From positions 1 to 64,000 of IMG/VR virus record IMGVR_UViG_3300013383_000023: 64,000 nucleotides of DNA. One strand, written 5' to 3'. The notes under the pieces were generated by a model, which saw only the letters and a list, made by a program, of their open reading frames with translations, ran no database searches and was not told the DNA's origin. Shown piece after piece: positions 1,877 through 55,900 of the stretch; the first letter of the stretch is position 1, and the number at the start of each line of letters is the position of its first letter. The position numbers and the translations under genes are program-made. This DNA comes from a virus (Duplodnaviria; Caudoviricetes).

Positions 1877-2293
1877 ATGACAAAAGAATTGAAATTTGTA
1901 AAGCCTTACTTCATGATGGATCCCAACGATAGAATGGTGATCTCCGAAGATGGCAAGTCTTATGTAAGTACTTACAGTGACGAATATCACGCAGATAGCG
2001 ATGACGACAATGTTTGGTCTACTTACTCTTCGACATTTGCAATATCAACAGAACAAGCCAAGCGATTGCTCGCACAGGGAGTCGTTGAGGAGGTTCATGA
2101 AACAAAGGATCAGGCTAATAAATTTGTTAATATATTTGATGAAATCGATAATCTTATTTCATTGTATACATTGCAACTTACAACGCTTGACGAAGATTAT
2201 AAAGATCAGCCATTGTGCCTTAAAAACGAAAAGCTGACAGTATTAAATAACCTCATTAAGCTTTTAAATCATCTTAAAAATTTGAAGAAATGA
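1877..2293 (+). CDS. Hypothetical protein, 138 aa
   Basis: Intact ORF; ATGA-coupled to the next gene. Confidence 0.8.
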   Translation: MTKELKFVKPYFMMDPNDRMVISEDGKSYVSTYSDEYHADSDDDNVWSTYSSTFAISTEQAKRLLAQGVVEEVHETKDQANKFVNIFDEIDNLISLYTLQLTTLDEDYKDQPLCLKNEKLTVLNNLIKLLNHLKNLKK

Positions 2294-2736
2294 ACAAAGT
2301 AGATCAATCAAAGTTAGCTGGATCTGTAGCTGAGAAGATTCAATATGAGTTCAATCGAGACTTCTTGGTAAAGCCGCTTCCAGTTGAAAAAATTAAGAAG
2401 GAGTTTACTACTCCAGTATCTACTGGCAAACATGAGGATAAGAATGGAGTTGAAGCAAATGACTTTAACGAAGTTAAAACTGAAGTAAAAGAAGTTGATT
2501 CAGATTTCATGAAGGGAATCGTTCTTAAAGTTCCGCATGAGTTTGAAAGACAGCTTTCAGATGCTAAGTTCACTCCAATTAACATTAGGGTTGGAGATAC
2601 GTTAATCTTTAAGAGATCTAATAGGTATTTTGATTTAGTTAAAGATACTATGCTCGTAGCATCATTTGATATAATAGCAGTTGAATATACTGGTGGAGAT
2701 AGAGAAAGCGTGCAAGTAGATAGCAAAGAAGCTTAA
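2290..2736 (+). CDS. GroES/Cpn10-like co-chaperonin
   Basis: Pattern RDFLVKP...GIVLKV...INIRVGDTLIF...DIIAV resembles GroES strands. Confidence 0.55.
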   Translation: MNKVDQSKLAGSVAEKIQYEFNRDFLVKPLPVEKIKKEFTTPVSTGKHEDKNGVEANDFNEVKTEVKEVDSDFMKGIVLKVPHEFERQLSDAKFTPINIRVGDTLIFKRSNRYFDLVKDTMLVASFDIIAVEYTGGDRESVQVDSKEA

Positions 2737-2959
2737 TTTAGATTATGAATTAGTTCACAAAATAGTCTACTATCAATTTAAGTTTATAGTAGATGTCATG
2801 AAAGATGATCAAGATACTCATGACATACTAATAAATGAACTATTTAAATTTAAACTTAAGCCGAGATTCAAGAATAATAAACAGGCTAATTATAGCCCAA
2901 AATGTAAATACAATGGCAAAGAAGACAACAAAGAAAGTCGTAAAGACAAAGAAGATTAA
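2681..2959 (+). CDS. HU/IHF-like DNA-binding protein, one TAG; start uncertain (TTG 2681 or GTG 2693)
   Basis: EIEKACK(TAG)IAKKLNLDYELVHKIVYYQFKFIVDVMK...ILINELFKFKLK fits the HU helix-helix-strand pattern; absent from the ORF track. Confidence 0.6.
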
Positions 2960-3302
2960 TAACCCAGAGCTTATCGTAAACACATTAGATCTTACTAATG
3001 AATTCGATACACAATTGGCAATTGTTAACGCAAAGATTGCTGCTGCTAAAGAGAATGTTACTCTTACTTTAGATGAACTTCGTATTGTTTCTGAAGCAAT
3101 TTATTGGTCAGTAAAAGACATTTGTGTAGCAGAGTCGTTGAAGTCAATTTTCGAAGATAAGCGTGAGTATTTAGTAAACCGAGATGGCGATAATTTAAAT
3201 GTTTCAAAGATCGTATATACTGAAGGGGATAAGGATCAGATGAAGAAACATGGATTTCTCAACAAGGCTTATGAGTGGGTTAAATCAAAGTTTAGTAAGT
3301 AA
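2913..3302 (+). CDS. Hypothetical protein, 129 aa
   Basis: Likely start MAKKTTKK at 2913, inside track ORF 2835..3302. Confidence 0.7.
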   Translation: MAKKTTKKVVKTKKINNPELIVNTLDLTNEFDTQLAIVNAKIAAAKENVTLTLDELRIVSEAIYWSVKDICVAESLKSIFEDKREYLVNRDGDNLNVSKIVYTEGDKDQMKKHGFLNKAYEWVKSKFSK

Positions 3303-3361
3303 TACGGTTTATTAAACACCGAAAGTTTAATATATTTTCTTCATAAAAAATTGAATTGGTA

Positions 3362-3434
3362 TTCCTACGAGACAACTGGTGGAGTCAAGTCAATATAAAG
3401 ACACAATAGCGAGGTCCGATTCCTCGGTAGGAAA
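3362..3434 (+). tRNA. Degenerate tRNA / tRNA-like element with a non-canonical anticodon arm
   Basis: Acceptor TTCCTAC/GTAGGAA, D stem GAC/GTC with TGG loop, T arm CGAGG-TCCGATT-CCTCG; anticodon arm only GTC-AATATAAA-GAC. Confidence 0.6.
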
Positions 3435-3640
3435 CTTCGTGGTTAATTCCACATGCTAAGAACTAACATTGTTGATTGTGATACATGTATTACTATCAAT
3501 ACGGTGATTACGAAATAATCAATACGATTGCACCGGATCGTATAATTGTCCGGCGAATGATTTTATAAATCCGGAGGCGACGACTCTTGTTAACAACGTC
3601 AATATTGCCCATTTGCGTAACAGCTAGCGCACCGGGCTCT

Positions 3641-4625
3641 TTTGTCCAATGAATAATTGAATATATATAATGGAAAATAAAATATATAAGCTCTCGGACG
3701 AACAGTTCGTTGAGCTACTCAAGAAAAGTTCAACAATATCTGAAGTGTTATTTAAACTTGGTTATACAGTTAAAGGAAATTCTTGGGGTTACTCTCAAGT
3801 TAAAAGAAGAATGACTGATCTTAATTTAGATTATTCTATATTTAAGGGAAAGTCAGCTGTTATAAAAACAACAAAGTTAAATACGGTTAAAAAAGAAGAT
3901 ATACTAAAAGAAAATTGTAGGCATCAGCGTACAGTACTACGAAGGTATGTTATAAAGAATAATCTTATTCCTTATAAATGCGCAATATGTGGATGTACAG
4001 AGTGGCAAGGAAAAACTTTAAGCTTGGAACTTGATCATATAAATGGTATAAACAATGATAATAGGTTAGAGAATCTTAGATTCTTATGCCCTAATTGCCA
4101 TAGCCAAACATCAACATACGGTAGTAGAAACCAACAACTTAATAGTTCAGAATACGATATTCCAGACGATTTAAGAAAGATAGTCGAAGAGAAATATAAT
4201 GAAGTTAAAAGTGTTAAAAAGGTTTCATCTATACTTGGAATACGTAGATGTGTTGTTACAAAAATAGTTAACGAATCTGGTCAAAAACATTCTAATCAGA
4301 AGTACATAATAAGATATGATAAAGATTGGAATGAGCTTGCAAGATATGGTTCTCTTGTAGAGGCGGCTAAAGCTTTAATAGAAGCTAATGAAGTTAAGAC
4401 TAAGCGGGTAAAGACTTGTACTAGAACAATAATGTACAACAAAGATGATTTTTGGTTGAACAGTCATTGGAAAATATTGGATGGTAGTGGGATAATAAAT
4501 AATCCACTATTAGAACCGTCTCTAATTGACTCGGAAGACAATGTTGACGAGGCGCAAGCGAAAGCGGCGTGACAGACTAAACGAGAGGGCTGACCTTAGG
4601 GTTGGATGCAATAGTCGAGCTTATG
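3641..4625 (+). mobile_element. Group I intron (985 nt) in the suppressor tRNA anticodon
   Basis: 5' exon ends in U; intron ends in G; P7 elements CAGACTA (~4574) and ATAGTC (4611); candidate IGS TTGGA at 4477-4481. Confidence 0.85.
3670..4572 (+). CDS. Intron-encoded HNH homing endonuclease
   Basis: CAICG...LELDHINGINNDNRLENLRFLCPNCH; NUMOD1-like C-terminus (YGSLVEAAKAL). Confidence 0.9.
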   Translation: MENKIYKLSDEQFVELLKKSSTISEVLFKLGYTVKGNSWGYSQVKRRMTDLNLDYSIFKGKSAVIKTTKLNTVKKEDILKENCRHQRTVLRRYVIKNNLIPYKCAICGCTEWQGKTLSLELDHINGINNDNRLENLRFLCPNCHSQTSTYGSRNQQLNSSEYDIPDDLRKIVEEKYNEVKSVKKVSSILGIRRCVVTKIVNESGQKHSNQKYIIRYDKDWNELARYGSLVEAAKALIEANEVKTKRVKTCTRTIMYNKDDFWLNSHWKILDGSGIINNPLLEPSLIDSEDNVDEAQAKAA

Positions 4626-4682
4626 AACCCCGGGGGAGTGGGGGCGGCACCTACATGGGCTACTAATTAAAATATAATAACT

Positions 4683-5297
4683 ATGATATTAGGTTCACAT
4701 AATACATTATCATACTTAATTCCAAGCAAATGGTATAAACGACCATTTAAATGGATGGCTAAATGTCAAAATAAAACTTATAAAGAGCAGTACGATCTTG
4801 GCGTTAGATTATTTGATCTTAGACTTAGATTTACCGATAGCCATGAAATAATTGTTTGTCACGGCAAGATTGAATATAAGTTTACTATCTACGATCTTAA
4901 AGATTTTTTAAACTTCTTAAACACTAAGAAAGATTGTTATTTGAGAGTTATTTATGAAAATACCAATTCAAAAGATATCTTGGAAAACTCTAAAGAGAGG
5001 TTATTTAAAGAGTTCTGCAGAAATATCCAAGATTCATATAAGAACATTGTTTTCTTCGGAGGTAATCGAAAATATGATTGGAAACAGATATTTAAATTTC
5101 TTGCCGAAGAGAAAGCGCCTAAATTGATTGATAGGTATTCTAGTACTACTAGCTTATTTAAATCAAATAATAGATTCTTACGTATTATAGACGACTTATG
5201 GCCATGGTTATATGCGAAATTAAACAATCATGAAAACTACAATTTGTATAAAGAGTCTGAAGATTGTCTCTTTATGGACTTTGTAGATATGAAGTAA
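4683..5297 (+). CDS. PI-specific phospholipase C X-domain-like phosphodiesterase
   Basis: ILGSHNT...AKCQ...EQYDLGVRLFDLRL...CHG motifs. Confidence 0.75.
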   Translation: MILGSHNTLSYLIPSKWYKRPFKWMAKCQNKTYKEQYDLGVRLFDLRLRFTDSHEIIVCHGKIEYKFTIYDLKDFLNFLNTKKDCYLRVIYENTNSKDILENSKERLFKEFCRNIQDSYKNIVFFGGNRKYDWKQIFKFLAEEKAPKLIDRYSSTTSLFKSNNRFLRIIDDLWPWLYAKLNNHENYNLYKESEDCLFMDFVDMK

Positions 5298-5388
5298 TCA
5301 TCCTCGTTATGACTTGCGCGAAGTCGAAAAGGCTTAGGGGATTGCGATAGAGGATGGCCGATCTAGACGGTTAACTGAAAAATCCCTT
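5298..5388 (+). ncRNA. Candidate structured RNA with a pseudoknot
   Basis: TCATCCTC/GAGGATGG, GACTT/AAGTC, CCG/CGG, plus crossing pair AGGGGATT/AATCCCTT. Confidence 0.4.
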
Positions 5389-5414
5389 CCTATTAACATT
5401 ATTTTATACTAAAC

Positions 5415-5942
5415 ATGGATCTAAAAATTAAACGATTAACAGATAAGGCTATAATGCCTGTACGCGCTCATGAAGGAGACGCAGGACTTGATCTTACATG
5501 CACTAATATCACTAGTGAAATTAATGAATGCGGTCAGCTTATTTTAGTATATCACACAGATCTTGCTGTAGAAATTCCAGAAGGCTATGTTGGATTACTT
5601 TGTCCTAGATCTAGTATTTATAAGAAGTCGTTGATGCAAACCAATTGTGTTGGAATAATTGATTCAAGCTATCGTGGAGAACTTATGGTTAAGTTTAGAG
5701 CTACTACAGATGTAGTTCCTGCGATTTATAATATTGGCGATAGATTCACACAGCTTATTATTGTTCCGTACATAGCTCCAGTTGTTACAGAAGTAACAGA
5801 GTTGTCTAAAACAGATCGCGGAGAAGGTGGTTATGGATCAAGCGACAATAAAGAAATTAGCGCGGAAACGGGATCTCGTGATAATGAGACCGCACCAGAT
5901 CAAGCGGCTGAACATAAAGACGGTTCTGAGTCGGCTGAATAA
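5415..5942 (+). CDS. dut: Trimeric dUTPase
   Basis: AGLDL, PRSS, GIIDSSYRGE and RGEGGYGSS motifs. Confidence 0.95.
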   Translation: MDLKIKRLTDKAIMPVRAHEGDAGLDLTCTNITSEINECGQLILVYHTDLAVEIPEGYVGLLCPRSSIYKKSLMQTNCVGIIDSSYRGELMVKFRATTDVVPAIYNIGDRFTQLIIVPYIAPVVTEVTELSKTDRGEGGYGSSDNKEISAETGSRDNETAPDQAAEHKDGSESAE

Positions 5943-6019: not shown

Positions 6020-7618
6020 ATGTTAAAGACAAATATAATAGATACAAAATATATTGGCGATGATGGTCGTGCAAAATAGCTTTGTATAATAGAGCCAGAT
6101 TCTACTAAAGACATATCTCTCAATTCTAAAGATATAGTGTCTGCTGGGTCTATTAAAAAGTTAATTGAAGCAATTGGGCCTCATACTCCAGAATATGATC
6201 CTACTGAAATAAATAAACGAGTTTACGCTGTTGAATCGGAGATTAGAACTCTAACAAATTATGTTTACGTCGATGAAAATAAAGATGTGAATATTAGCTA
6301 GCTTAATGTTGGTGGAATTACAACTGCTAATTACGGTACTAGAATTACAGTTCCAGGCGAAACAGATGATATCGACATTGGTCTATTGGGCGGACAGAAG
6401 CCAAATAAATATTAGTATTACCCCATATTGACTGCGAAAGGATATAATAAGCCAATTGTCGATGCTATGGGGAATGTTAATTGCTTTTCCTTAAATGTGA
6501 AAGACCAGATGCATTCTTATGCTTTAATTAAAGCACATGGAGATTTAAGTGTAGATGGTGATACAGCGCTTGGAAAAGCTTATATATCTGATGTAAACAC
6601 TTATGAATTACACCCGTGGTCGAAAGATGGGATTTCGCTGTATACAAAGCATGATGATGAATCTACGAGTCGGATTGCTACATTATGTGGCCCTAAACTT
6701 AAGAATGACGACGCTTTCCCTATATTAAGTATTGCTGGTAGAACTATGTCAATTATTGATGTTAATTCAAATATTAATGCCGAAACTATAAAAGCTAGCA
6801 ATATTAAATGTGTATATACAACTGCCACAACGTATTTAGATGTTGACAGCACTTCGAATTTTAAAGGGTTGATTACTGCTACTGGCGGAATTTAGATTGG
6901 AATGGTATCAATACAGAATGGTGTTGGGCCATCATTTAATGGTATGCAATGCGGTATGACATCATCTGGCCTTATACAAACTTAGGGTGTTTATACAAAT
7001 GTTATTACAAATGGCTCGACTGAAAAGAAAGCTTATCTCACAGATGGTACAACTGCGGCATTGCCAGATACTACTGCTATTGAAGCTAATATAACATCTC
7101 TCACTAGTAGGGTGTCTGCACTTGAAAGTAATTCTTCATCTGGCTCCAGTTCTTCGTCTGATTCTGCTACATTTGATGAGTTGACAATTAACGGAGGCTC
7201 AAGCGGGAAAATATAGTTTAGTAATAATACGTTTAAATAGTGCGAGCTTCCAGGTAGAAGGGATTTAAATATATTACAGTCTACATATATTGGCTATGGG
7301 CCTGGTGGACCAGAATCTGTTGATGAATACAAATCGTACTTTTTATATGTCGATTAGCCAACATACATTAAAAATTTAAGCGTTGGATCGATATCTAATT
7401 TTTCTCCATCAAGACTTACCGGATTATATTATATAGAACCACCAACAGATAAATCTTTACAAATAGATGGCAAACTTTCTGTCGATGGAAAATCTACGTT
7501 TTATAATAGTATATCAGTTGATGGAACTGTAACGGCCACTAATTTAGCTATTTCAAGCGGTGGAAAAACTTATCAATTTGATGTCACAAAAGCCATATCT
7601 CTTGGAATTCTTAAATAA
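6020..7618 (+). CDS. Tail fibre/spike-like structural protein, 532 aa with TAG readthrough
   Basis: Single frame ATG 6020 to TAA 7618 broken only by TAG; beta-rich G/S/T composition; C-terminus resembles that of 13650..14276. Confidence 0.7.
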
Positions 7619-19004: not shown

Positions 19005-22000
19005 ATGGTAGATTTTAATTAGAAGCTCCACAATACTGATAAATTTAGATAGGCTGCTTTATTTTTTCAGTAGAATGGATGTTATACCTTAGCCCCCAGA
19101 GGTACGACTGATTATAATAAATATTGGGAGCAAGAAACAGAAAGATGCTTAAACGGATATACTGCTTCAGACGGTGAAGGTATTACTGGATATAATTATT
19201 TTTATCTTAACTACAGCCCGATCATGAGACTTAAAGAAACTGAATATGCTGATCGTGAAGGCAATACGAGAAAGCGTAGAGAGCGTATATTAGAGTTTCC
19301 AAGTTTCTGGGATTATGATTACTACTATTACAATGCTATAGAATAGGCAGAATTAGAAGGTAAACATATGGCGGTAATCAAGTGCAGACAAAGGGGATAC
19401 GAACAACCATATAGCGAGCTTGTGGCTACACCAAATGGATTTGTTGAGATGGGATCTCTTAAGATTGGTGACGAAATATGGAATCCGGATGGAAAAACTA
19501 CAAAAGTTCTAGAAATATACGAGCAAGGATTTAAAGATGTATATAGGTTAACATTAGCTGATGGTCGTTCTGTTAGATGCGGAGCAGATCATTTATGGGA
19601 AGTGATATGCGCTAATAATCGCTTCAAGAGCAAGATTATTACAACGCATGATTTATTAAACAATGGGTTGTTTAATAATTGTACAGTAAATGGTAAGAAA
19701 TATAATACTTATAAGTATTATCTCCCAGCTATAGAGCCATTACAATACAGCGAGAAAGAATAGAAAGTACCCGCTTACGTATTAGGTGCATTGCTAGGAG
19801 ATGGAGCGTTGACAAAAAGAACTCCAAAAATATCGTCTATAGACCAAGAAATATTAGATAGATTTAAAGAGCTACTTGGAGATGGATTTGAATTTAAATA
19901 TGATCCTACTACTTCATGCGAATACAGGATTATAGATAAAGAAAGATTCATGCATAAAGATGAGTTTGAAAATGGATAGTACGGAGTAAATAGACTGCAT
20001 AGATGGATCGAGGAGTTAGGACTATGTGTTTCTTGCTCATATAAATTTATACCAGATTCATATAAATACGGATCTATTGAACAAAGGTATGAACTTATAA
20101 GAGGATTGATGGATACAGATGGATATATATCAAAAAACGGATGCATGTCTTTTATTAATACATCAAAACAATTAATAGACGATTTTGTTGAAGTACTAAG
20201 AAGTTTAGGAATACTTTGTTCCGTATCTAAACGAGCTCCAGGTAAAGGCGGAGTATAGAACGGCAGAGAAATATTTGGAACAAAATTCGCTTATGTTGTG
20301 TATATAAAGGGAAATCCTGATATATTCTTTTTATCTAGAAAGAAAAACAGGATTAAAAAGAATAGAAAGTTTAGTAATAAAGTTGCTATTACAAATATAG
20401 AATACCTTGGAGAACAAGAAAAACAAAGATGTATTTTTGTTGACAATCCAAATCATTTGTATCTTACAAGAGATTATATCCCTACACATAACAGCTTTAA
20501 AGGAGCATCAATGTTAGTGCGAAACTATATGCTTATTCCCGGATCTAAAAACTTCGCTATAGCGTCAGAATAGAAATTCTTAGTTGGCGACGGATTGCTT
20601 ACTAAAGCGTGGCAGATAATGGACTTTCTTGATAAACATACAGCTTGGGCTAAGCAACGTCTTGTGTCAACACGTATGGAAAGAACATCTGGATATAAAA
20701 TTACTGATGAATTTGGTAAGTAGACAGAACAAGGATATTTATCTAGTATTACCGGTATTACTCTTAAGAACGACCCAGAACGCGTCCGTGGTACTCGAGC
20801 TAAACTTGTATTGTGGGAAGAGGGTGGTAAATTTCCAAGCTTATTAGACGCATGGCGAATAGAATAGCCTTCTGTAGAAACCGATGACGGTATCGCGTTC
20901 GGTTTGATGGTAGCGTATGGAACTGGCGGTACGGTTGGCGCATCATTTGACGGTTTAAAAGAATTGTTTTACAAGCCCAAGTCTTATAATGTACTAAGCT
21001 TTCCAAATATATGGGACGAAGGGCGAGAGAATACTGAATGCGGATTTTTTGTACCGGCTTATTCTAATCTTGAGTCATTTGATGAAAATGGTAATCAAGT
21101 GTATATGGATAAGGATGGAAATAGTTTAAAATAGAAAGCTATCGAAGAACTTATTACACAACGTAACAAGGTAAAAGATGGAGGAGCTAGTCAATCGTCT
21201 ATCGACAGATTTATATCAGAACGTCCCATAAGACCATAGGAAGCTGTATTGGAAATTGGTAAAAATATATTCCCGAGAAAACTCTTAATGGATTAGCTTA
21301 CTAAATTGCGCACAAATAAGAAGTTGCAGAATATGAAACATATTGTCGATCTTGTATGGGATGGTGATGGAAAAGTAAAAGCTATAGAAAAGAAATCCGG
21401 AGACATTACTACATATCCATTAAAGAAGGGCGATAAGCCACATGGTTCTGTAGTAATCTGGGAGTACCCAGTTAAAGATCCGCCTTTAGGACTATATATT
21501 GCAGGCTGCGACCCGTTAAATACCAGCGGGGTATAATCGAGCAAAAACGGTGAAAGTCTAGAACAGAAAACACCGTGCTAATCTTATAGATTGCGAAAGG
21601 CTATAAGGCAGTGTAACGCATAGGAGATGAATAAATATAATTCTCCCACGAGTGCTCGACGCCAATTTGGTGATAATATATGCTGAACTACATAGGGATA
21701 TGTAGAGGTTAAGATAAAAAGCTTAGCGATAACAAATTGATGATCATGATGATAGTTTTACCAACTCTTTAGGTTCTACATTTATATTTAAGCGTGTAAG
21801 AGCAGGTGAAGCTTGGAACGATGTTATAGTAGCCGAATATTCTGGTAGACCAGATACTGCCGAAGAGTATTATGAAAACGTAAGAAAACTCTTAATATTT
21901 TATAATGCTAGACTATTATTTGAGAATGAACGTAAAGGTATATATCCATACTTTACTAATAAACATTGCGATTACTTACTTGCAGATCAGCCAGATAAAA

Positions 22001-22384: not shown

Positions 22385-25300
22385 ATGGTACAAGATAATT
22401 TATATAATTCAACATTCCCGCAATAGAAATTACCTATTAAAAAGAAAACCGAATAGTGGCAGCATGATTGCGTAAACTATATAATTGGCGAAGGTAATGT
22501 TACATCTGGTGGATAGAATGTTTCACATTTCGGAGAGTTGTAGACCTATTATGATTTATATAATAGCAAATTCAACGAAAAGGATTTTCAGAGAATTACA
22601 AATCCGTTTCATGTCAAAGACGGATTTCCTGCTACTCCTCAAGACTTTAATATAGTAAGACCAAAAGTAGACTTACTTATTGGAGAAGAGACTAAGCGCC
22701 CATTAAATTTCAAAGTATGCCGCACTTCATAGGAGGCTACTTCTGAATTAATGGAGAAACAGAAATAGTTATTATTGCAATATATTATGCAATCAATAAC
22801 TGCAAGAATGGATTCAGAACAAGCTTAGCAATTTCAACAACAAATTGAAAGCGGCGAAGTAATGCCTCCAGAGGCAATTGCTAAATATATGGATAAAGAT
22901 TATAAAGATGTAATAGAAAATACTGCATATCACGCATTGTGTTATCTTAGAGAAAAGCTTTCATTAGATAATGAATTTGTTAAAGGTTGGAAAGATGGAC
23001 TCATTGCTGGCATGGAGTTCTATTATGTTGGAGTTCAAAATGCAGAACCTTATGTGGAACGAGTTAACCCATTAGAGTTCTCATTTGATAAAACTCCTGG
23101 GCTTGAATTCATCGAAGATGGAGCATGGTGCTGCCGCAAGATGAGATTGCCTATTACTGAAATATATGATAGATATTATGATAAGCTTGAAGAGAAAGAT
23201 CTCGCCAAACTTGAAGACATGATTAATTCTGTTCCAGCTCGTAATTACGGAGACAAGAATCCAATAGACGACTTTAATAAGATTACGTGGTTTAATCATG
23301 ATAATCCTCTTACCGATGATTATGGTAAGTCTCACATAAACGTTTGGCATGTATGCTGGAAATCGTTTAAAAAGATCTATTATGTTACTACTCAAGATGA
23401 ATCCGGATAGACTCAAGTTGATATAGTTGACGAGTCTTATATTCCTGTTGGAAATGAATTGAATATAGATCCAGATTGGATTGTCGAAGTATGGGAAGGA
23501 TATAGAGCTGGCGAAGATTTATTCTTTGGTATACAGCCAATTGAATATCAACATGTTAGTATTGATAATCCAAATAGTCAGAAGCTTCCGTATTGTGGCG
23601 CAATTTATAGCGCTACTAATAGTAAGCCTAGGTCGTTGGTAAGCATATTAAAACCTTTGCAGTATATGTATATTGTGTTGTGGTATAGACTTGAACTAGC
23701 TATTGCTAGAGACAAAGGAAAAGTAGTGAATATGGATATTACGCAAATTCCTAAGTCTATGAGCATTACACCAGAACGTTGGTTACATTACCTTTCTAGC
23801 GTTGGCGTTAATTTTATTAACCCTTTTGAGTGCTTTAAATTTGGAACAGAAGTTTTGATGTCAGATGGTTCTATTAGAAAAATCGAAGATATTAAAGTCG
23901 GAGAATCGGTAATGGGGCCAGATGGCACTCCAAGAAAAGTATTATCTAGACATATTGGCGTTGATAATCTTTACAGAATAAAAGGAGGCAGCGGATGTGA
24001 TGATTAGATTGTAAATAGTAGGCATCTGATAAAGTATAAAGAAAAGAACTTCTTCAAGAAAACTTATTTTGACAAATTGCGCACCCCAATAGATATTCTA
24101 AATGAAGATTCTAAAAAATCTTATATTAGTGGTCTTAGATATTTACAAAGAGCCGAGGATGTAAACATTAATATGGGAAAAGACGTGTTACTTGATCCAT
24201 ATATGTTAGGTCTTTGGCTGGGAGATGGATTTACAAACAAATCGGCCATTGTAAATGAAGATCAAGAAGTGTTGTATAGTATATACAGCTGGGCCAAGGC
24301 TCACAATATGGATATAACAATAGACTATACTGAAAATAATAGCGCTGTTGTATACAATATTGTCGATAAAAAAGCTAAGAAAAATATATTTAAACGATCT
24401 CTCAGATATTATAATATTTTAAATAATAAAGATATTCCAGAAGATTATATATATACATCTGTCGAAAATAGATTACAGCTACTTGCTGGATTAATAGATA
24501 CTGATGGAAGTTTTAGTAAACGAGATAGAGTGTATACATTTAGCCAGTGCGAAAAAAGGAAGCATATTGTATACAAATTGGCATTTATAGCAAGATCTCT
24601 CGGATTTAAATGTACTGTGCGGCATTATCGTAGTGGGTGTAATAAATATATTAATGGTAGCAAGAATATTAGTGTTTGCCAAGATACTTATGTGTTAAGA
24701 ATAATTGATGGCAAGTATGACATACCTTGTAGAATCGCAAGAAAACAACATCATTGGCAGAAGAAAAGAACCGAAAGAATGCTTTCGCATTTTTCTGTAG
24801 AATATGATGGAATTGGACGGTACTGTGGAATAACAGTAGATGGAGATAATTTGTTCTTACTTAAAGATTTTACTATAGTACACAATTGCGGTTGGAACAT
24901 TCCTGGAAGAGAAGGAGGTAAACCATCTAGCTTTAATTAGATAACAGCACTTGATTTAACAATGTCTAATGTAATATCGGAATACATTCAATTAATGGAT
25001 AAGATAGAGCAGCTTGCTGGGACTATCACAGGTATTACTGAACAGCGACAAGGGGCTATTACATCTTCTGAACTTGTTGGAAATGTTGAAAGATCTGTAC
25101 AGCAATCATCTCATATTACAGAGCCATTATTCTGGGTTCATAATCAGTGTAAAAGAAACGTTCTCAACATGCTTCTTAATACTGCCAAAGGAATATGGCA
25201 AGATACTGGTAAAACCAAATTGCAATATATATTCGATAATGGTGAGCGTGCTTTCTTAGATATTGAAAAGAAGTTTTATTTCGAAGACATGGATGTGTTT

Positions 25301-25921
25301 GTAAGTGATACTTCTAAGGATATCGAAAGAATTAATAAGCTACAACAGCTTATTCAACCAGCAATGCAGAATGGAGCATCATTACTTGAGGCCGCAGAAG
25401 TTCTTACTACAGACAACTTTAATTTACTTAAATAGAAACTTAAGGATATGTAGACTCGTCAAGAGCAGATGCAGCAACAACAATAGCAACAAGAGGCTCA
25501 ACAACAACAGTAGCTGCAATAGATGCAGAATGAAGCTAAGCAACAAGAACTTATGTTGCAAGAAGCATAGATGGATCTTGATAGATATAAGATTGATCAA
25601 GATAATGCTACTAAGATTACAGTTGCTGAGATATCGGCATATCGTGGTACAGAAGATAAGGATGCTAATATGAATGGCATACCAGATCCTATGGAAATAG
25701 CAAAAGATGCTACAGCTCAAATGAAGATTAGAGAAGATGCTTACACTAAACGATACGAGCAAAAACAAAAATCAGATATTGAGAAGGCAAAAATAAATCT
25801 CGAAAAGGATAAGATGGCTCATGAAACGTAGTTGCAGAAACAAAAGGATGATGCAGCTATGGAACGAGAGAAACTTAAGGCAAGAACTGCAATTAAAAAC
25901 AAAGTTGTTGGTGAGCGATGA
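22385..25921 (+). CDS. Portal protein, 1178 aa including an intein
   Basis: Follows TerL; track ORFs 22862, 23459, 24077, 24962 and 25571 share a frame; RPKVDLLIGEE, ITGITEQRQG motifs and Gln-rich tail. Confidence 0.88.
23831..24886 (+). mobile_element. Intein with LAGLIDADG endonuclease in the portal protein, 352 aa
   Basis: PFE|CFKFGTEVLMSDGS...FTIVHN|CGW; LGLWLGDG and LLAGLIDTDG. Confidence 0.92.
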
Positions 25922-29968: not shown

Positions 29969-32462
29969 ATGAATAATACACTTTTAAATAATCTTCAGCT
30001 TTATCGCGGACGTCGTTTTAGCGACTTGGTTGATGAAAATATGATTTCTAATGCACTTTTGACAAAGCCTCATGAAATTAGTGGCCTTTTGTCACTTGTG
30101 TTTGGTACAAAAGACGATGGCGTATCAACTGCTATCGATTTGATTACTGGCGGTCTTGGTAAAACAATGACTATCGAGAATCGTGAATATGAGTGGTCTG
30201 TAATGATCGATTCTGAGCATGCTGTTAATATTCGTTATGCTAAATATAATGGTAATGCAATTACAAGTGCAGACGATAGCATTACTCCGGGTATTAACAA
30301 TAGTCCTATTTACCTTGGTCTCGAGGAAAGATATTTTGGTCCAGGCGCAGTTTTATCTTTTGATAATATTGATTTCCAAGTTCGCATTAGTGGTCATCCT
30401 TATCAGGATGGTTCTACTTGGGTATACGAGTGCTACGTAGCTGACGGATTTGCTGGTTCTTATATTCCTACAGAATATCTTCTCCCAGGACGTCAAGTAA
30501 GTCGTATTGGTTCTGCTTATGAAGAGTATAGTGACGAGGCAGACATCATCAACTATCAGACTCCGTTTAAGATGCGTAATAACCTTATGACTCTTCGTCT
30601 TTCTTATGATATCACTGGTGACGCTTATTCTACAGTTCTCGCTATTGCCTTGAAGGATCCAGAGACGGGTAAAACATCTTACTTGTGGTCAGACTATCAG
30701 TATTGGATTGCTCTTCGTGAGTGGAAGCGCCGTGAGGAAAAGATGTTGTTGTTTGCTCATTCTAACCGCAATTCAGATGGCACGTATAATCTTAAGGGAA
30801 CAAATGGGCGTCCTGTAGCTATCTCTGCAGGTTTGTTCGAGCAGATCTCTCCTTCAAATGTTCGTTATTATACTACATTGACTGCGGAACTTCTCGAAGA
30901 CTATTTGTTCGACCTTTGCTACAACATGCTTGGTACAAACGAGCGTAAGTTTATTGCATTGACTGGAGAAATGGGTTAACATTCTAGCCCCTTACAGCAG
31001 CGATGCTGTATAGCAAATCTATTTAATTGCTGGAAACTCTATTAAAATAATTAACTTAGACTAAAAATATTATGACGAATACATAGATGTTCGATAGAAA
31101 ATCAGCAGCAAAGACTTTACATAAACCATGTAGAGGTTTTGAATATAGATATATCGTTTATATCGACGGAAGCGTTTATGATAGATATACCAAAGGATTA
31201 GTAAAAAGCAACAATGGTAAAGTTACTCTTGTTGGAATAAATAATAAAGAATACTGTATGCCAATCTAGAAAATTATAGATTCTACTTTTTGTGATTTAG
31301 ATTTAACAAAATTTGACAATGTTAAAAATCACGAAGGATATCTTATAAATAAAAATGGCAGTTTGTATAATGTCAAATCTAAACGATTTGTATCCACCAC
31401 AATTAAAAATGGATATTTAAGATATAACGTAGATTGGAAAAGAAGGTTGGTGCATGAAGTATTGGCAGATCAATATATTCAAAACCCGAATCATTATGAA
31501 ACTATAGACCATGTAGATTGCAATAAATTAAATAATAGTATCGCAAATCTAGAATGGGTTACTAGAGAGGAAAATAAAAAACGCGCTTATGATAATGGAT
31601 TAAACTGCATTATTAAGACTCTTGTAACGTTTACTAAAAATAATGATTCTTTTACTCTATTGGGACTAGAAAACGCTAGTAGGGTATTTAATATTAAAAA
31701 ATCTTGTTTATGTACTATGATAAACAGATACGGAAACAAAGACATGGTTATCCCTAGTGGTTCTATGAAAGGTTATAAAATAACTACATAGAAATGTAAA
31801 TGTAATGTTCAACGACTATCCGATACGGAGTAGGATTCAAGCGAATCTGATATGGTAGACATCCAAATTGGATGAAGATATAGTCTGGTCTCTTATGAAA
31901 ATAAGAGCTCGAAAGAGATTTAGTTTAGCGAACTAAATAAACATAAACGATGAGAGAATTCGACCGAGTATTGAAAGAGAAGGCTGCTAGCTACACTCTT
32001 ATTGATACTAAGTTCATTACTGGTTCTGGTCAGGAATTGACACTTGGCGGTCAGTTTACTACTTATAAGATGTTAAATGGTATTGAATTGACATTGAAGC
32101 GTTGCGCGTTGTTTGACAATATGGAACTCTTCCGCCAGTTGCATCCTATTACAGGTAAGCCATTAATGTCTTATACATTCTTGTTTGTTGATCTTGGCAC
32201 ACGTGATGGTCAGGCAAACGTTGTTAAGGTTTGTCGTAAGGGCCGTGAATTCGTTCAGTGGTGTACTGGCGGTTCTGTACTTCCAAATGGTTACGCAAAC
32301 AATATTAATACAATGAGATCTAATAGCCGTGATGGTTATCAGGTTCACTTCCTTGGCGAAGAGGGTATTATGCTTCGCAATCCTCTGTCTTGCGGTATCT
32401 TGTATTGCGATGCTGAAGATACAGAGATCGAAAATAATGCAGACATTAACGTAGCTGCGTAA
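29969..32462 (+). CDS. Major capsid protein (exons 29969-30976 and 31950-32462; 506 aa)
   Basis: crAss-like MCP motifs (ENREYEW, IGSAYEEYS, GLFEQI, ALTGEMG|MREFD); position after portal and scaffold. Confidence 0.88.
30977..31949 (+). mobile_element. Group I intron (973 nt) in the MCP gene
   Basis: GGGT| pairs with IGS GCCC; AATTGCTGGAAA, AATCAGCAGC, TTCAACGACTA and AAGATATAGTCT elements; terminal G. Confidence 0.92.
31072..31875 (+). CDS. Intron-encoded HNH homing endonuclease, 267 aa, four TAG codons
   Basis: LVHEVLADQYIQNP...IDHVDCNKLNNSIANLEWVTREEN. Confidence 0.85.
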
Positions 32463-48589: not shown

Positions 48590-49921
48590 ATGATATTTTA
48601 GTACGATTAGGCATTGGAAATGCCGACCATGAATGTATATGATGACGGACTCATGCAGTAGTACATAAATGCTGTTAGAGATGATTATAAGCAAGGTTTG
48701 GCTGATCAAAAAGAGTTTGTTACCAAATATGGAGATTTCTATAGTCCTATACAGAAAAGTGTTGATTGGTGGAACGAAAACGTAAATGATCCAATTCGAG
48801 ACTTTGTTGCACAAGCATCATAGTCTGGAATTGATATGAGGTCTCCTGAATTTAGAGCAGCATTATCTAGATTGCAAAACAGTATGCCATATGGAGAAAT
48901 GTAGCGTCAAAAACAGCAAGCTAAAATGGCCGAATAGTATATTTAGAATCGCGACGCTTTAATTAGAGCTGGTAAATTTGATCCAAACTTTGAAAAGTAT
49001 CTACTTAATGGCAAGACGCTAGAAACATGGGATCCAATTAAAGACGGTTTGTGGACAAGAACGTCTCCAGAACAGCTTAATGAATTATCTGCGTTTGCAG
49101 CATTATCTACAAATGGTCTTAAAGATTCGTTCATTAAACGCGAAAATGGATACGATCATTATGGTATTACTAAAGAGAGAGTCCAAGATGCTATTGGTAG
49201 AAATATGTTAGATTATCTAAACTCTAATTCTGGAAAGTATTATCTTGACTTAATAGCAAAGGCCAATAATCTCGATATTAAAGATCCAAAGCAACGTAAT
49301 CAAGCATAGCAATTACTTTTAGATTAGGCTGTAGCTAGATCTGGAAAAGTTAGCGATAATATTAAAGTTAACGAATATGATCTACTTAAGGTAAAGAATG
49401 ATTATGATGTACAAATGGAGAAGATGCGGGAGGCCAATGACATTGAAAAGTTGTTAATGAAAGGTGCTTACGGATCAACAAATGGATAGTCTGGAGTATT
49501 TGCTGCACCGAAAGGTATGACGGCAGAGTTTGTTCCTACTGGTTATCGTGTTACTCATTCGCCAGAATATTAGGGCAATATGACTAATAACGAATATAAT
49601 GGACCTGATGGGAAAGTGTCTAAATCAAGTACAACAAAACCAACGTATGCTGAAGTATATAATATAAGCGATCCGAAAAACGCAGATATATATGTAATTA
49701 ATGATAAAGGCGTTATGCACAACCTTAAAATTGGGAATCATAGTAATCACAATGTTCGTTTTTATCCAGTAAAAGGTGCAATCACAGAAGGGAGGACTGG
49801 ATTTTATTATCAATTGGGACAATTGACTTGGGCAGATAATTCTGGCAAGGATATTAAATCTAAGGACAATGTATGGATTAGACTTAGAAAGCAATACGTT
49901 CCAAATAAAACTAATAAATAA
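48590..49921 (+). CDS. Virion cargo protein, 443 aa
   Basis: Track ORFs 49049 and 49580 are in frame with ATG 48590; TAATG coupling to the next gene. Confidence 0.7.
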
Positions 49922-52900
49922 TGAATAATAATAGATTAATTTACAGAGACGCAAAACCCGCTAACTCAGAACGTGCCAATTTGTTTGACAGATTAGCAAA
50001 TGAAGCTCGTGCAAAAACTGCTGCTTTTAGACAACGCCCAGATGTATCTAAGCGTCCACGCAATGTTGAATGGGTTGATAAAGTTATTAATCAGACAAAT
50101 AAGGATTTATATGGAGATGTTGCTCAATACATCAAGCCTGTATCACGTAGTTAGGCTATAAAAGATCGTTTAGATTTTAAAAAACGATATAATGACTATT
50201 GGGATTAGGTGCGATATAGAAATAAGGTAGATCAAGAAGAGAACGCTGAAATAGAAAAAGAGCGACAATCGTTATTCGGAAATGGCTATGCCTCCAAAGT
50301 AAGTAGAGTTTTACCTATTGATCTAGCAAATCTTTCTTATACTGTTAAGAATATTGTTAATGATATTGCAGCGAATAAGGCTAGCGGTGGTGCCGAAGCA
50401 TTAGAAAGCGATAATAGAGATTTGTTAACTAAGTCAGATTTAAAAGACGATGTAATAAACTATCTTAAAATTAAGTAGCAGTTTGACTTAGTTAAAGAAG
50501 CCCTTCCGCAAACAACTGGAGATAAACGACGTGAACTTGAGAGTGAATTGTATAGCTACAAACAATATCTTGAAGATCCAAACAATATCTAGAAAATGTC
50601 AGATTACGCTAATGCAAGAAATCGTGAACATGGATTTTGGAGATAGTTTGGGGACGCTCTACGTGATGCTCCTGGTACAATGCTTGAACACGCTCTTGGA
50701 TATACTGGAAAAGCAAGAGAAGAAATTTATGGAAGTCCAGAATTAGCTTAGAAAGTACGTGATAAGAGCTTGGTAGATGACACTGTTAAAGCTCTTATTT
50801 CTAAAGGCAGAGACTCATTAAAAGGAGAAGTTGGAGATGCTGCGTATTAGGCAGATGATTATTCTCTTGCAATAGCCGGAATTGAAACAGAAGACAAATC
50901 TGACAAAAACGAAATAAAAGAAAATAATGCTAGAGCGAACTAGCTTAGACTTGATGAAGCTAGAATTAGACAGAACATTCCAAGGGTTTGGACTGAAAAG
51001 TCTTAGATAACACAGGACTAGTCTTTATTTAATCCAGATTATTGGAAATACTGTGTTCCTGGAACTGTTGGATCTTCTATATCTTCTGACAATTTCTGGA
51101 AAGCTATGGCCATCAAAGGTGGTACAGCAGCGCTTGGAGCTGCGATTGGAGCAGTAACCGGAGGCTGGAAAGGCGCCGCTTAGGGGGCTGTTAGTGGCTG
51201 GAATGCAGGTTCTGTTTTTGCATCTCCATGGGATGTGGCATCTGGATTTGATGAGAATAAAGTCGAAATCCATGACAAGTATCTTGATAATCTTTAGAAA
51301 AACCTCGATGCTAGAACCGCGAGCGATAACGCAGATGGTAAAGTATCGCCATTAAAAACAGCAACACTTTCATAGCTTTAGAAATAGAGTCTTGAGTATT
51401 GGCGCAAACGAGGAATGTCTGATGATTATATAAATAATCATTATGATATTAGTAATGATGAAGGTGTTCGTAATGTATTAAATGATCTTGCATCTGGCAG
51501 AACATCAATTACAAGCCCATTGGTTAAGGAATGCGCAATGGACGCAGCTCTTGGTCTTAATGCTCAATATTATTCAGATAATGTTGTTACAATGAGTGAC
51601 ACCTTCGTTGGATTGGGTGTAAATTGGCTTCCTGGAGGAAACTCGTTTAAGCTTGGAAAGACTATAATTAAGGGTACTGGTAAAGTAACTGGTATTACTG
51701 CTGCTGGTAAAGCGATTGCTAAATCAAAATTTGTTAAATCTGCTGGGAATATAGCAAAAAAAGCAAAAGATTATATTGGTGTTGAGCGCGGAAATAGCAT
51801 GATAATGTTTGATAACGCAGCATCTAGAGTTGCTTCTACTGGGGCTGCAATTGATGCTACTGAAGCTGCTGCTGGCGGAATGGCAAACTCATTTAAAGCT
51901 GGATATAATGCGGTTGGCGGAGCCGCAGAAGAGCTTGGATTTGGTTTAGCTGGTAAGGCTGCAGCCGGTACAGTCGCTGGTACTGGAAATGTTCTAGTTA
52001 GAGCTGCGAAATCTGCATTGCCACAGAAGTATCAGCAATTTATAGATGATTTTGGAAGAGCTGCCGTTAATAAATATCAAGGAGTATTGGATAAACTTGC
52101 TCCAGTTGGTTCGTGGAGAAGATTGGCCGCTAAATATGGATATCAATATGCCAAACGTAGAGCCATTGGTGCCTTTTCTGAGGCGACAGAAGAAGGTAAT
52201 CAATATCAGTTTTCTCAGAAAGACTTTTCTAAGTATAGATATGGATTACCATCATTAACGGATTTGTTTATTGGTCACACTGAAGCTACAATGAATGCCG
52301 TTAAATCGTATGCATCATTATTTGGCATATGTGATAGTGAGCTTAAAGACGATATGGAATATTGGAACAATGTTAAGGGCGGAGCCGCTCTTGGCATGGC
52401 CAATGTTGAAGCTGCTATTCAGTCTGGTTTGTATACAAAAGAAGCTTATCAATAGCACGCTGTTAATAAAGCTCTTCAATAGGAACTTGCGAAGAATCGT
52501 GAAGACGAAAATATGACTAGGCGTTCAAATCAAGCTGTTTCTCAACAAATGGCCAAAGGTCGTGGTGATGCGGTTATTAATTATCTTGAAGAACAAAAAG
52601 CTAATGATCAACGCAGATCAAAAGATCAGCGCATGGCTTCAGACAAACAATGGGATAACAAAATATAGACTGCTAGAGAAATACAAGCTCTTACAGAAAA
52701 TAAACAGCTTACAAGACGTCTTGAAGCTAAAGGTATAAAGTATGGCTCTGCTCAATATAATGCAGCTATTGCTGACTATTATAATTCTAGACAGCAGATT
52801 AGATAGAATCAAGAGGATATTAATGATATAAATCAACGTGTTCAACAACGTGGAACTACGAAAAATAATTTGGATGCAGTTAGGTCTTATGTTGAATAGG

Positions 52901-55900
52901 AAGTAGATCAACAGATAAAACAGTCTGGACAGAAAGTATCTGACGAAGAACGTGCTACTATTGTTGAAAACAGAGTAAAGGAGCGCGCTGCTATCAATGT
53001 TCTTTATAATCAATTATAGTCATTACTAGAGTTAAAGTCTAAAGTTAATACAGTAAAAGGATTCTTTAGAACATTAAAGCGTAATAAATTAAACAATATA
53101 CAAAGTCATTCTATTGCATTAAAACATCTTAACGATCAAATATCTCAAGTAAAATCTTAGATTAATGAGCTTCATAATCTTAGAGCTGGAATACAAAACG
53201 AAGACGAACGATTTGATGTATTTGAAGGTAGATCAGAATCCGAAATATATGATGATATAAACAACTCTAATGGCTTCATGAGAGATGGTTATGTTCAAGA
53301 TCTTTCTCAACAAAAAGCTTTATTAGAATTCGACAATCAATAGCATTTAATGCATATTGATCAGATGAATTATGGTATAGTAGAACGCGAGCGTGATACT
53401 AAAGGCTTGATTAATAAAGCTAAGAATCTAGTTTAGGATGTTAGATATGAATATAATCCAGAAGAATATGAAAGACAGCATAAAGACAGAGTTGAACGAT
53501 CTAAACGGGCAAAAGAATATTCTGATAAAGAAAAAGAGATTAACGCGAAAATAGAAACTAGCCAAAAACAAATAAAAGACCTTAAAGAGCAAAACAATAA
53601 GAACTTTAAAGAGAGCAAATAGGCTGTTGCAGAAGAAGATCAAAATATAACCAAACGGATATCCGATCTTGAAAGTGAAATAAAGAAAAATCAAGATGAA
53701 CTCAATAATCTTCGCTCTGAAGCTAAAAAGCAGAATGATGAACTTAATAATCGAGAAAGACTAGCTAGCTCTAAACGCAAAGAGGATGATAGATACGTTC
53801 AACGTATTAATAGAATTCTTGACGTTCAAAAAGAAGACGATGCTCTAAATTGGATGGTTCAAGATATTGCTGAAGGTAATGCTGGACAAAAGATCGATGA
53901 ATTGTAGGCAGAAGAATATTTTAAATAGTAGAAACAGGAAGATCAAGAAGATCAGGCCACTGCAGCTGATTATATTAGATATTAGAACGGTATAAGCGAG
54001 TTTGAGTCTAAAGAAGAACAAGAATCCGCTAAACGTGAATACGAAGAAGCTAAGAAAAAGCGTGAAGAGAAACTTAAACAGAATGGTTAGAAATGGAATA
54101 ATCGTAGACAACGTGTATTAAGGTGGGCCGCAGATAAGCTTTCTAAAGCAAAAAATAAATATAAAGGTACGACGTATTCCGCATTAGGCGTAACTCCAGA
54201 ATTCTTAGAAAATTTTGCTACTAGAATGATGTCTAGCGGTATCATTGGAGTTTATAAGATAGGCAACTTTATTGATGACCTACGAGCTACTTTACAGTTC
54301 GCCGCAAAGACCAAAGGTCTTTCTGACAAAGATGTAGACAATGAGATTAAAGAGAACAATTCTGCGATAGTACGAGCTTATAAACGAGTTTCCACTAGAG
54401 TTTCTATGGCCTTAGCATTAACTGGAGCAAACGTTAAAGATTTGTTTAGTACCGATGATGAACTTGCATAGCATTTAATTTAGATTCCTACTGAGAGATA
54501 GAATCTTAAGCAGAATTCAAATTGGACTTCAGCTTAGTTAGCAGTTAAACAAAAGTTTGATGCGTCACAAGCGTAGATTTCTAGAGATGACTTTTACACT
54601 ACTTACGTAAATGAGAATGGTAAAGAAGTAGCATATCGTAATGTTATATGGAGTGCATTTGGAAAGAAAGAAGATCAAGATAGTGCATCTTTGAAGAATG
54701 CTAAAGCAATAAGATCCGGAATATTAAATTATATTATTACTGGTGATATTAGTTATATTTAGAATATTGTTTTATCGTATGATAATGATATAGAGCTTTC
54801 TATAAAGGATACTCCAGGATATGATAAATTGGTAGCGTTTGCTACAAATTTGTATAATAATATCCAAAGTAACGGATTGATGCCATTAGATGTTAATCTA
54901 AACATATATGGCAAAGCGAAGGACGGGTCAAATATATCGAGTTAGGCTGATATTGTATTGATTGACAGAAACGGCAACGCTATAATTTATAACGTGCTCA
55001 CATCAATCTATTCTAATATAATGAATACTGGTCAAACATCTCAAGACTTAGGTACGATTAAGACTTTGGTGAGTCGTGCTATTTCTGAAATGAAGCCAGT
55101 TATTGAAATATTCCAAAATAAATACGGTCTTAATGTAAGCTGGGCTTCTATCATTCCAATACAAGTAGATCCAGGAGTTTCTATAAATGTTGAATCCGAC
55201 GTTAATGGAGTTGGCGTTTCACTTAATAATATAGAAGAGCATTATAATGTAGATAGACAACGTATTAATGGAATGCTTAATTTAGCTATTCAGAAATACA
55301 ATGATTACGCTAGATATTTAGGTGTTGATCAAAGAGTTGGTATTGATCCATCAAGTATGCCAGTATAGCAAGTGTTAGATATGATTGATTCTATAAATAA
55401 TTCTACTGAATAGTTAATCAGAATAGCTAATACTAACACTAAGAAGTCTTAGGAAACATAGTAGACAGAAAAGCGTACTGCTCCTATTCAAGATAATACT
55501 ACTTATACAGAAAAAGAATAGGCTTTTATAGAGGCAGTAACTGTTCTTGATGGAATGATATCGAATATGCAACAGCAAGAAGGATTAGTTGACGATAATT
55601 TTATATTACAAACATTAGCTTGCCAAACATCTTTGTATCAACTTCTTAAGAGCAAAGAATCGTCCATAGATAACCTTAATCCATATAGTGAAGTAGTTGT
55701 AAAAGCATTGGAATATCTCGCTAAAAATTCTACTAACTATTCTGGATGTCGTAAAGCCATCAATAATTTTGTTAGTATGTCTATAGCTAATGACACAATG
55801 ACTACATCATTGGATTCTGCTAACAACATGGAAGTGATGCTTAAGACGGCAAATTTGTGGAATAATATTTTTGGATAGATTTTAAGTTCTTAGGATTTAT

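Follow-up and report, generated by a model that had tools for sequence, protein, structure and literature searches.

How does a crAss-like gut phage whose late genes carry in-frame UAG codons read them, when standard tRNA scans return no tRNA for that codon? The question is posed by IMG/VR record IMGVR_UViG_3300013383_000023, a single-contig virus genome of 99,844 bp that CheckV rates as complete, and whose first 64 kb are the stretch analyzed here (the window; coordinates are window positions, and features are on the plus strand unless stated otherwise). Its nearest named relatives belong to the Crassvirales, Suoliviridae, Oafivirinae, namely Bohxovirus and cr131_1/Cacepaovirus. A first-pass annotation had proposed that the two halves of a tRNA with a CUA anticodon flank a group I intron, and that splicing of this intron acts as a timed switch of the genetic code. 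We consider it probable that the split gene is the phage's only UAG-reading tRNA gene, interrupted between U35 and A36 by a mobile group I intron, and that the intron is a passenger and not a dedicated timer.

Reading through TAG raised the coverage of the genome by open reading frames (ORFs) of at least 100 amino acids from 63% to 91%, and lengthened the longest ORF from 665 to 4209 amino acids, with the gain limited to roughly 5-75 kb of the genome. There are 13 in-frame TAG codons in TerL and 17 in the portal gene, the giant ORFs also contain them, and they number in the hundreds genome-wide; as had been claimed, most genes of the block at 6-72 kb need UAG to be read as Gln. The genes surrounding the tRNA, at 2290-5942, have no in-frame TAG, and the first TAG-containing gene (6020-7618) lies just downstream of the split tRNA gene. 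When the portal genes of six named crAss phages were aligned, Gln was the commonest residue opposite TAG (44 of 109), followed by Glu. A search with TerL was set aside for this purpose, since it gave close relatives only, probably translated with TAG as Gln. Together, ORF content and alignment indicate that UAG in this genome is decoded as an amino acid, as Gln, and that the genome is strongly recoded.

No second decoder came to light. ARAGORN and Infernal, run on the whole genome, found only tRNA-Lys(UUU) and tRNA-Leu(UAA), and a genome-wide search for a second CUA anticodon stem-loop gave eight chance stem-loops, none of them in a tRNA context. Another tRNA(CUA) is likewise absent from the five complete relatives examined. 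The premise that there is a sole tRNA-CUA gene therefore held genome-wide and, because no other tRNA(CUA) was found, the altered code would depend on removal of the intron, making splicing obligatory.

The 5´ exon of the tRNA(CUA) gene (3606-3640) supplies the 5´ strand of the acceptor stem, the D arm (D loop AACAGCUA), the 5´ strand of the anticodon stem (CCGGG) and the loop residues C32, U33, C34 and U35. The 3´ exon (4626-4662) opens with A36, A37 and C38, and continues with the 3´ strand of the anticodon stem (CCCGG), a variable loop of 4 nucleotides (nt), the T arm (GUGGG-GGCGGCA-CCUAC, with a non-canonical T loop), the 3´ strand of the acceptor stem and a discriminator A; CCA is not encoded. 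Joined, the exons make 72 nt with a cloverleaf as the minimum-free-energy fold (-29.6 kcal/mol): an acceptor of 6 bp plus U.U, a D stem of 4 bp, anticodon and T stems of 5 bp each, and the 4-nt variable loop. At pair 1-72 the window has U.U, where close relatives have U-A or U.G. The joined anticodon loop, C32 U33 C34 U35 A36 A37 C38, has U33 and a purine at position 37, and presents the anticodon CUA. The two halves, the 5-bp stem and the loop CUCUAAC are all as first proposed, and so is the expectation that standard tRNA scans miss the gene: ARAGORN called no tRNA of any kind in the window, and its intron option did not bring up this one in the genome.

A query with the protein encoded inside the intron, an HNH endonuclease, returned 20 IMG/VR loci at 52-97% identity and a Bohxovirus record, giving 22 loci with the window (L numbers denote loci). 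In every one of the 22, the ORF is flanked by a tRNA 5´ half that ends in CTCT and a 3´ half that starts with AA[AC], the intron measures 977-1003 nt, and its boundaries restore a 7-nt anticodon loop exactly. The identical split is found in at least 25 related crAss-like contigs. The anticodon stem covaries among the loci, from CCGGG/CCCGG in the window to UCGGG/CCCGA in L005 (U27-A43), CCUGG/CCAGG in L193 and GUGGG/CCCAC in L002; pair 49-65 swaps between C-G and G-C, and L193 has changes in the acceptor as well as in the anticodon stem. A chance likeness to tRNA halves was rejected, because the split recurs in all 21 other HNH loci with compensatory changes in the tRNA stems and the intron helices.

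The interruption is a group I-type intron of 985 nt (3641-4625) between anticodon positions 35 and 36, with a U(-1).G pairing, a terminal G and covariation in its core. Its P1 helix is long-range. The extension of P1 has its 5´ strand, TCCAATGA, at 3645-3652 and its 3´ strand, TCATTGGA, at 4464-4471, a pairing across the ORF that had been predicted and that has an equivalent in other clades, where the helix is remade from different sequences (L010, L002, L016, L017 and L019). At the splice site, P1 consists of the wobble U3640.G4479 and the pairs C3639-G4480 and U3638-A4481, and equivalent pairing is predicted in other clades. These pairs join exon U33-C34-U35 to the GGA (4479-4481) of the internal guide UUGGA (4477-4481), whose UU (4477-4478) is able to pair with exon A36-A37 (4626-4627) as P10. 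The guide assignment thus stood up, including the U.G pair and the contact with AA of the 3´ exon; as TTGGATG, the guide is invariant in 20 of 20 aligned sequences.

The remaining helices were derived from an alignment (A1) of 20 sequences of related phage loci, covering 41 pairs in P2-P8 and 820 cells, with the P3/P7 pseudoknot counted. P2 (4484-4510) is a hairpin of 9 bp with one bulged G and the loop AAUAAAUA; five of its nine pairs change on both sides and 98.9% of cells are paired. P3 is formed by CCGUCUC (4516-4522) and GAGAGGG (4583-4589), with six of seven pairs changing on both sides, and its 3´ strand makes the P3/P7 pseudoknot with P7. P4 (4530-4533 with 4548-4551) has a pair that changes from C-G to U-A in 7 sequences and encloses a short P5 (4537-4539 with 4543-4545), in which A-U becomes C-G in 5 sequences and U-G in 2, and the J4/5 and J5/4 junctions are A-rich. 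P6 (GCGC with GCGU) and P6a, which ends in a GAAA tetraloop, occupy 4552-4570; P6 is invariant, and the P6a pair changes from C-G to U-A in 6 sequences. The guanosine-binding helix P7 pairs CAGACUA (4573-4579, the 'R' element, with A4574 bulged) with UAGUCG (4612-4617, the 'S' element, preceded by J8/7 AUGCAA), is 100% paired and has two pairs that change on both sides (C-G to A-U and A-U to G-C). The P8 hairpin, CUGACC-UUAG-GGUUGG (4590-4605), also has two such pairs and 100% of cells paired. G4625, the terminal (omega) G, marks the 3´ splice site, and this base is G in 21 of the 22 loci. Over P2-P8 as a whole, 98.7% of cells hold standard pairs, compared with 32-47% in controls that displace the 3´ partners by 1-3 columns, 18 of the 41 pairs change on both sides, and none of 500 shuffles matched the observed values.

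The ORF within the intron (3670-4572) encodes 300 amino acids and starts 29 nt inside the intron, in the P1 loop. From there it runs through P1´, P2, P3 and P4-P6 to a UGA stop (4570-4572) at the boundary of P6 and J6/7. Residues 104-146 match Pfam HNH PF01844 (22.7 bits; cut-off 21.4), PHROG 10822 matches with E=3e-46, and the translation contains CxxC ... DH-N ... CxxCH with its zinc-binding cysteines. None of its codons is TAG and 10 encode Gln. The earlier pairing of a group I core with an HNH gene inside the intron was thus confirmed by covariation for the one, and by Pfam and PHROG matches for the other.

In the mechanism we propose, the long-range P1 (3645-3652 with 4464-4471), closing a loop of about 810 nt that holds the HNH gene, would set exon U33-C34-U35 on the guide GGA. 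Free guanosine bound in P7 would attack after U3640, and terminal G4625 would next take the guanosine site, so that the exons are ligated into the loop CUCUAAC with its CUA anticodon. With the mature tRNA, ribosomes would be able to translate through the in-frame TAG codons, several hundred in number, that the genes for virion, packaging and giant proteins contain. A ribosome translating P1´-P6 should block folding of the ribozyme in that RNA molecule; because the HNH ORF runs through this region, translation and splicing are expected to be antagonistic and splicing is probably slowed. The HNH homing endonuclease, in turn, may insert a copy of the intron into tRNA(CUA) alleles that lack it in co-infecting relatives. 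The best reading, to us, is that splicing is an obligatory and probably slowed step of the code switch, and that this is the by-product of a selfish element.

The distribution of the intron fits that reading. An uninterrupted tRNA(CUA) of the same type is present in at least 110 viral contigs, so that the intronless alleles for which a search of relatives had been suggested do exist, though IMG/VR yielded none of the window-type tRNA. In cr131_1, the syntenic tRNA(CUA) is uninterrupted and is followed directly by a free-standing gene for a GIY-YIG endonuclease. One allele occurs in both states, as the 3´ exon of L209, which has the intron, equals the intron-free alleles L030 and L067 over 39 nt. 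Comparison of the window with L009, L010 and L013 gave 84-85% identity for the intron, 51-77% for the exons and about 61% for the flanks. The unit of intron and HNH gene sits in several different tRNA(CUA) alleles, as expected from the earlier suggestion that the endonuclease spreads the intron among suppressor alleles. This patchy spread, the two states of one allele and the greater conservation of the intron relative to its exons fit a homing element and argue against a dedicated timer. On sequence grounds, the intron fits a selfish homing element that is tolerated for splicing out.

Several points weigh against a passenger intron that is spliced from a working tRNA, and they bear in part on other readings of the locus. 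We infer self-splicing, homing activity and the antagonism between translation and splicing, the first of these from structure only. A search of IMG/VR for an intron-free allele of the window-type tRNA found none, and the intron is in 7 of 7 genomes of the window clade, where it is conceivable that it has acquired a regulatory role. The first-pass annotation went further and suggested that the intron could set the timing of the code switch and of lysis. In such a model, a co-opted ribozyme, whose folding and splicing rate may be held down early by HNH translation through the core, would time UAG reading, the late genes and lysis. The anticodon does exist only after splicing, with no other tRNA(CUA) present, and maturation is plausibly slow and sensitive to translation, given that P1 forms across about 810 nt and that the ORF overlaps P1´-P6. 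The position of the tRNA gene just upstream of the first TAG-containing gene, and the intron's presence in all seven sampled genomes of the clade, also suit a timer. However, related recoded phages commonly carry an uninterrupted tRNA(CUA) gene, cr131_1 at the syntenic position among them, and identical exons are found in both interrupted and intact genes. The intron, moreover, exceeds its exons in conservation and encodes a homing endonuclease. In the distant clade the ORF already stops within P2 and leaves the core uncovered; the deep overlap is therefore clade-specific and not a conserved design. Control of timing is thus unsupported, and we regard a gate of this kind as unlikely. We would similarly not expect the intron to prove more than a passenger in the wider sense that its long P1 and HNH translation couple tRNA maturation inversely to early translation, setting the timing of UAG reading, virion production and lysis, or that homing co-converts adjacent exon bases, including A36, and carries CUA into tRNA-Gln genes of related phages, thereby spreading the code change itself.

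Another set of points concerns the tRNA itself. The elbow of the window tRNA departs from consensus, with a D loop, AACAGCUA, that lacks G18-G19, and a T loop of GGCGGCA, not UUCGAAU, that lacks T54-Psi55. The idea that a tRNA finder would recognize the spliced sequence was borne out for the relatives and not for the window: of the 22 loci spliced in silico, 15 are called as tRNA(cta) by ARAGORN, and the other seven, all with the odd D and T loops, comprise the window and its six nearest relatives. No call was made on the spliced window sequence at thresholds of 100, 90 or 80%, a rejection that we attribute to the odd elbow, and with an elbow of this kind the function of the window tRNA is not assured. 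One could therefore suppose that the split tRNA of the window clade is a pseudogene or a poor tRNA, and that UAG is decoded by an unrecognized factor, a view with which the presence of several odd tRNA-like elements in the genome would also agree. Yet the four stems are intact, and compensatory changes are seen within the odd clade (U27-A43 in L005, and the stems and a possible 19-56 swap in L193), for which reason the odd-elbow tRNA looks constrained rather than decayed. Tertiary pair 19-56 apparently covaries, with GG D loops accompanying UUC T loops, GA accompanying UUU, and G-C in the window against U-A in L193 (under our assignment of the loop positions). Exon identity stays at 89-97% between genomes in which the flanks are down to about 60%, and hundreds of in-frame TAG codons need a decoder, yet no alternative was found by ARAGORN, Infernal or the stem-loop search. 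Decay of the gene is, in our estimation, quite unlikely. Canonical relatives of the suppressor are 50-67% identical to phage tRNA-Gln(UUG), with a D arm common to both, and the window tRNA only 38-43%; U1 forms only a weak 1-72 pair, together with A73. Glutamine is the putative, and most likely, amino acid of the suppressor.

The last points of this kind concern the intron. Its final base is A in L002 (position 3517, Bohxovirus 'endotrachealis') and in L187 (IMG/VR), with the G-C pair of P7 unchanged there, and no intact tRNA(CUA) that could act as a substitute was found in these two relatives; with a terminal A, efficient exon ligation by a group I intron is difficult to explain. The proposed check of the core with an Infernal group I model was negative, with Rfam RF00028 giving zero matches on 3300-5000 and on the 241-nt core (4440-4680), both at the gathering threshold and at E<=10. 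Nor did RF00028 match any of 24 related loci sharing the core motif, even at E<=1. The seeds of this model are not bacterial (Williams 2020, 10.1101/2020.01.27.920355). Because RF00028 finds nothing, we argue for group I membership from the covariation and from the junctions (J3/4 AAUUG, CAGACUAAA and AUGCAAUAGUC), which resemble the RF00028 consensus. The core is without P5abc and without P7.1/7.2, and a P9 hairpin is absent in the window clade and present only in the distant clade L016-L022. That a free-standing HNH gene with structured flanks simply destroyed a tRNA gene, as the silence of RF00028 and the free-standing GIY-YIG gene right after the intact tRNA of cr131_1 might suggest, is very improbable, and we reject it on the complete group I helix set with its P3/P7 pseudoknot, the strong covariation of these helices, the U.G splice-site pair, the conserved guide, the terminal G and the exact restoration of the 7-nt loop in 22 of 22 loci.

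With the passenger intron as the preferred reading, its origin can be considered. The P6-J6/7-P7 motif GGCGCAAG...AGCGUGANNGACU, with flanks AAUUGACUUGGAA and GAUGCGAUAGUC, is present in at least 117 viral contigs (loci L169-L247) from many environments, and about 10% of the motif-bearing contigs examined have it in a tRNA context. The intron is thus, by its core motif, a member of a broad phage intron class missed by Rfam. Because this motif is shared by at least 100 phage introns, which lie mostly outside tRNA genes, the intron seems to have been drawn from the phage intron pool rather than from the cellular IC3 tRNA introns.

In the searchable literature we found no description of a phage suppressor tRNA gene interrupted by an intron. 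Group I introns in the anticodon loops of bacterial and plastid tRNAs comprise the classical Leu.3Ug, fMet.2Ug, Arg.5Ug and Ile2.5Ug, and 17 further settings; in that survey, which notes that tRNA introns longer than about 400 nt 'may contain' genes, the two longest measure 1817 nt and 922 nt (Williams 2020, 10.1101/2020.01.27.920355). The phage intron resembles these in its position within the 7-nt anticodon loop, the U(-1) wobble in P1, the terminal G, an intact anticodon stem, the few exon nucleotides in P1 and a tRNA that is non-functional until spliced. It differs in its host gene, a phage stop-codon suppressor where theirs are cellular sense-codon tRNAs; it also reaches 985 nt, houses an HNH ORF within its P1 loop and escapes RF00028. 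Unlike the classical sites, the insertion follows the fourth loop nucleotide (CUCU/...g/AAC), which is '4Ug' in the numbering of Williams (2020).

TAG- or TGA-recoded crAss-like phages are known to have suppressor tRNAs, and those listed are uninterrupted (Yutin et al. 2021, PMC7886860; Borges et al. 2021, 10.1101/2021.08.26.457843). Introns are abundant in crAss-like phages, and some recoded genomes have no detectable suppressor, for which a host-encoded or very divergent one was proposed, and some suppressor-bearing genomes are not recoded (Yutin et al. 2021, PMC7886860). The genome studied here is like these phages in being Suoliviridae-like, with late genes in which TAG is Gln, standard early genes and a tRNA(CUA) near nucleotide-metabolism genes. 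Unlike the suppressors listed for them, its suppressor is split by an intron and, in the window clade, is also odd-elbowed.

Mobile group I introns with homing endonucleases are well established in phages, as in T4 td (I-TevI) and nrdB (I-TevIII) and SPO1 (I-HmuI), and the tRNA-fMet intron of Synechocystis encodes I-Ssp6803I. In common with these introns, the intron described here has an endonuclease ORF looped out from a peripheral helix, is patchy among relatives, and has an ORF that partly overlaps the ribozyme, so that translation and folding can interfere. It stands apart in that its target tRNA alters the genetic code, that the ORF in L1 extends to J6/7, and that the endonuclease is a predicted one.

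A suppressor that is split by an intron, and sometimes has an odd elbow, offers a concrete explanation for recoded genomes without a detectable suppressor, the mismatch noted by Yutin et al. (2021), and annotation pipelines would need a step that seeks split suppressors. Such a gene also puts a ribozyme reaction immediately ahead of a change in the genetic code. Because the core belongs to a large set of phage introns unseen by the standard Rfam model, the intron content of phage metagenomes is probably under-counted. If functional, a suppressor with a GGCRGCA T loop would show how far the elbow of a bacterial-type tRNA can drift and still work.

Suppressors with aberrant elbows occur in more than one sample. 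Besides the window clade, L193 (IMGVR_UViG_3300032038_001557) has an intron-split tRNA(CUA) with the T loop GGAGGCA and the D loop AACAUUA, and the intron-split tRNA(CUA) of L212 has a T region even less regular than that of L193. The record IMGVR_UViG_3300045988_076858 (162,493 bp) holds two intron-split tRNA(CUA) genes, L008 and L010, one odd-elbowed, the other canonical; either two phages of about 98 kb were joined in a chimeric assembly, or a single genome has two split suppressors.

The surroundings of the split gene hold other elements. A tRNA-like element at 3362-3435 has a 7-bp acceptor and a good T arm (loop UCCGAUU), but its D arm is weak and its anticodon arm malformed; ARAGORN reports it, with an 'anticodon' of 2 nt, only when the threshold is set to 85%. 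Relatives have comparable odd tRNA-like genes, in which the anticodon loop is 6 or 8 nt long, at L158 (ca), L290 (tatg) and L293 (tt). Upstream of the suppressor tRNA, a non-coding element of about 60 nt (3506-3565) is shared with cr131_1 (L001 2508-2565). It forms two hairpins, one with a compensatory change (CCGG...CCGG compared with CAGG...CCTG), and could act as a promoter or processing signal, or represent a small RNA. Right after the tRNA, the ORF at 4683-5297 has a weak match to the PI-PLC X domain (22.2 bits against a cut-off of 23.1). It is kept after the suppressor tRNA in cr131_1 and L005, and is absent in L003, L004 and L006-L008, where dUTPase comes directly.

Further insertions lie elsewhere in the genome. 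RF00028 finds group I introns in the window at 62420-62700 (88.4 bits) and, below threshold, at 31740-31907 (43.5 bits). The former sits between two giant TAG-rich ORFs, 49921-62547 and 62710-65724, that probably make up a single interrupted gene. The TerL and portal regions (19005-21536 and 22385-25921) suggest inserted elements in both genes: TerL homologues carry intein and LAGLIDADG domains (PF14890, PF05204 and PF14528), and residues of about 486-845 of the portal ORF form an internal segment matching terminase/ATPase PHROGs. In a relative (G005), ARAGORN calls a permuted transfer-messenger RNA on the minus strand of L168 (1183-1590), with the tag peptide GDYNIVDYTHVA.

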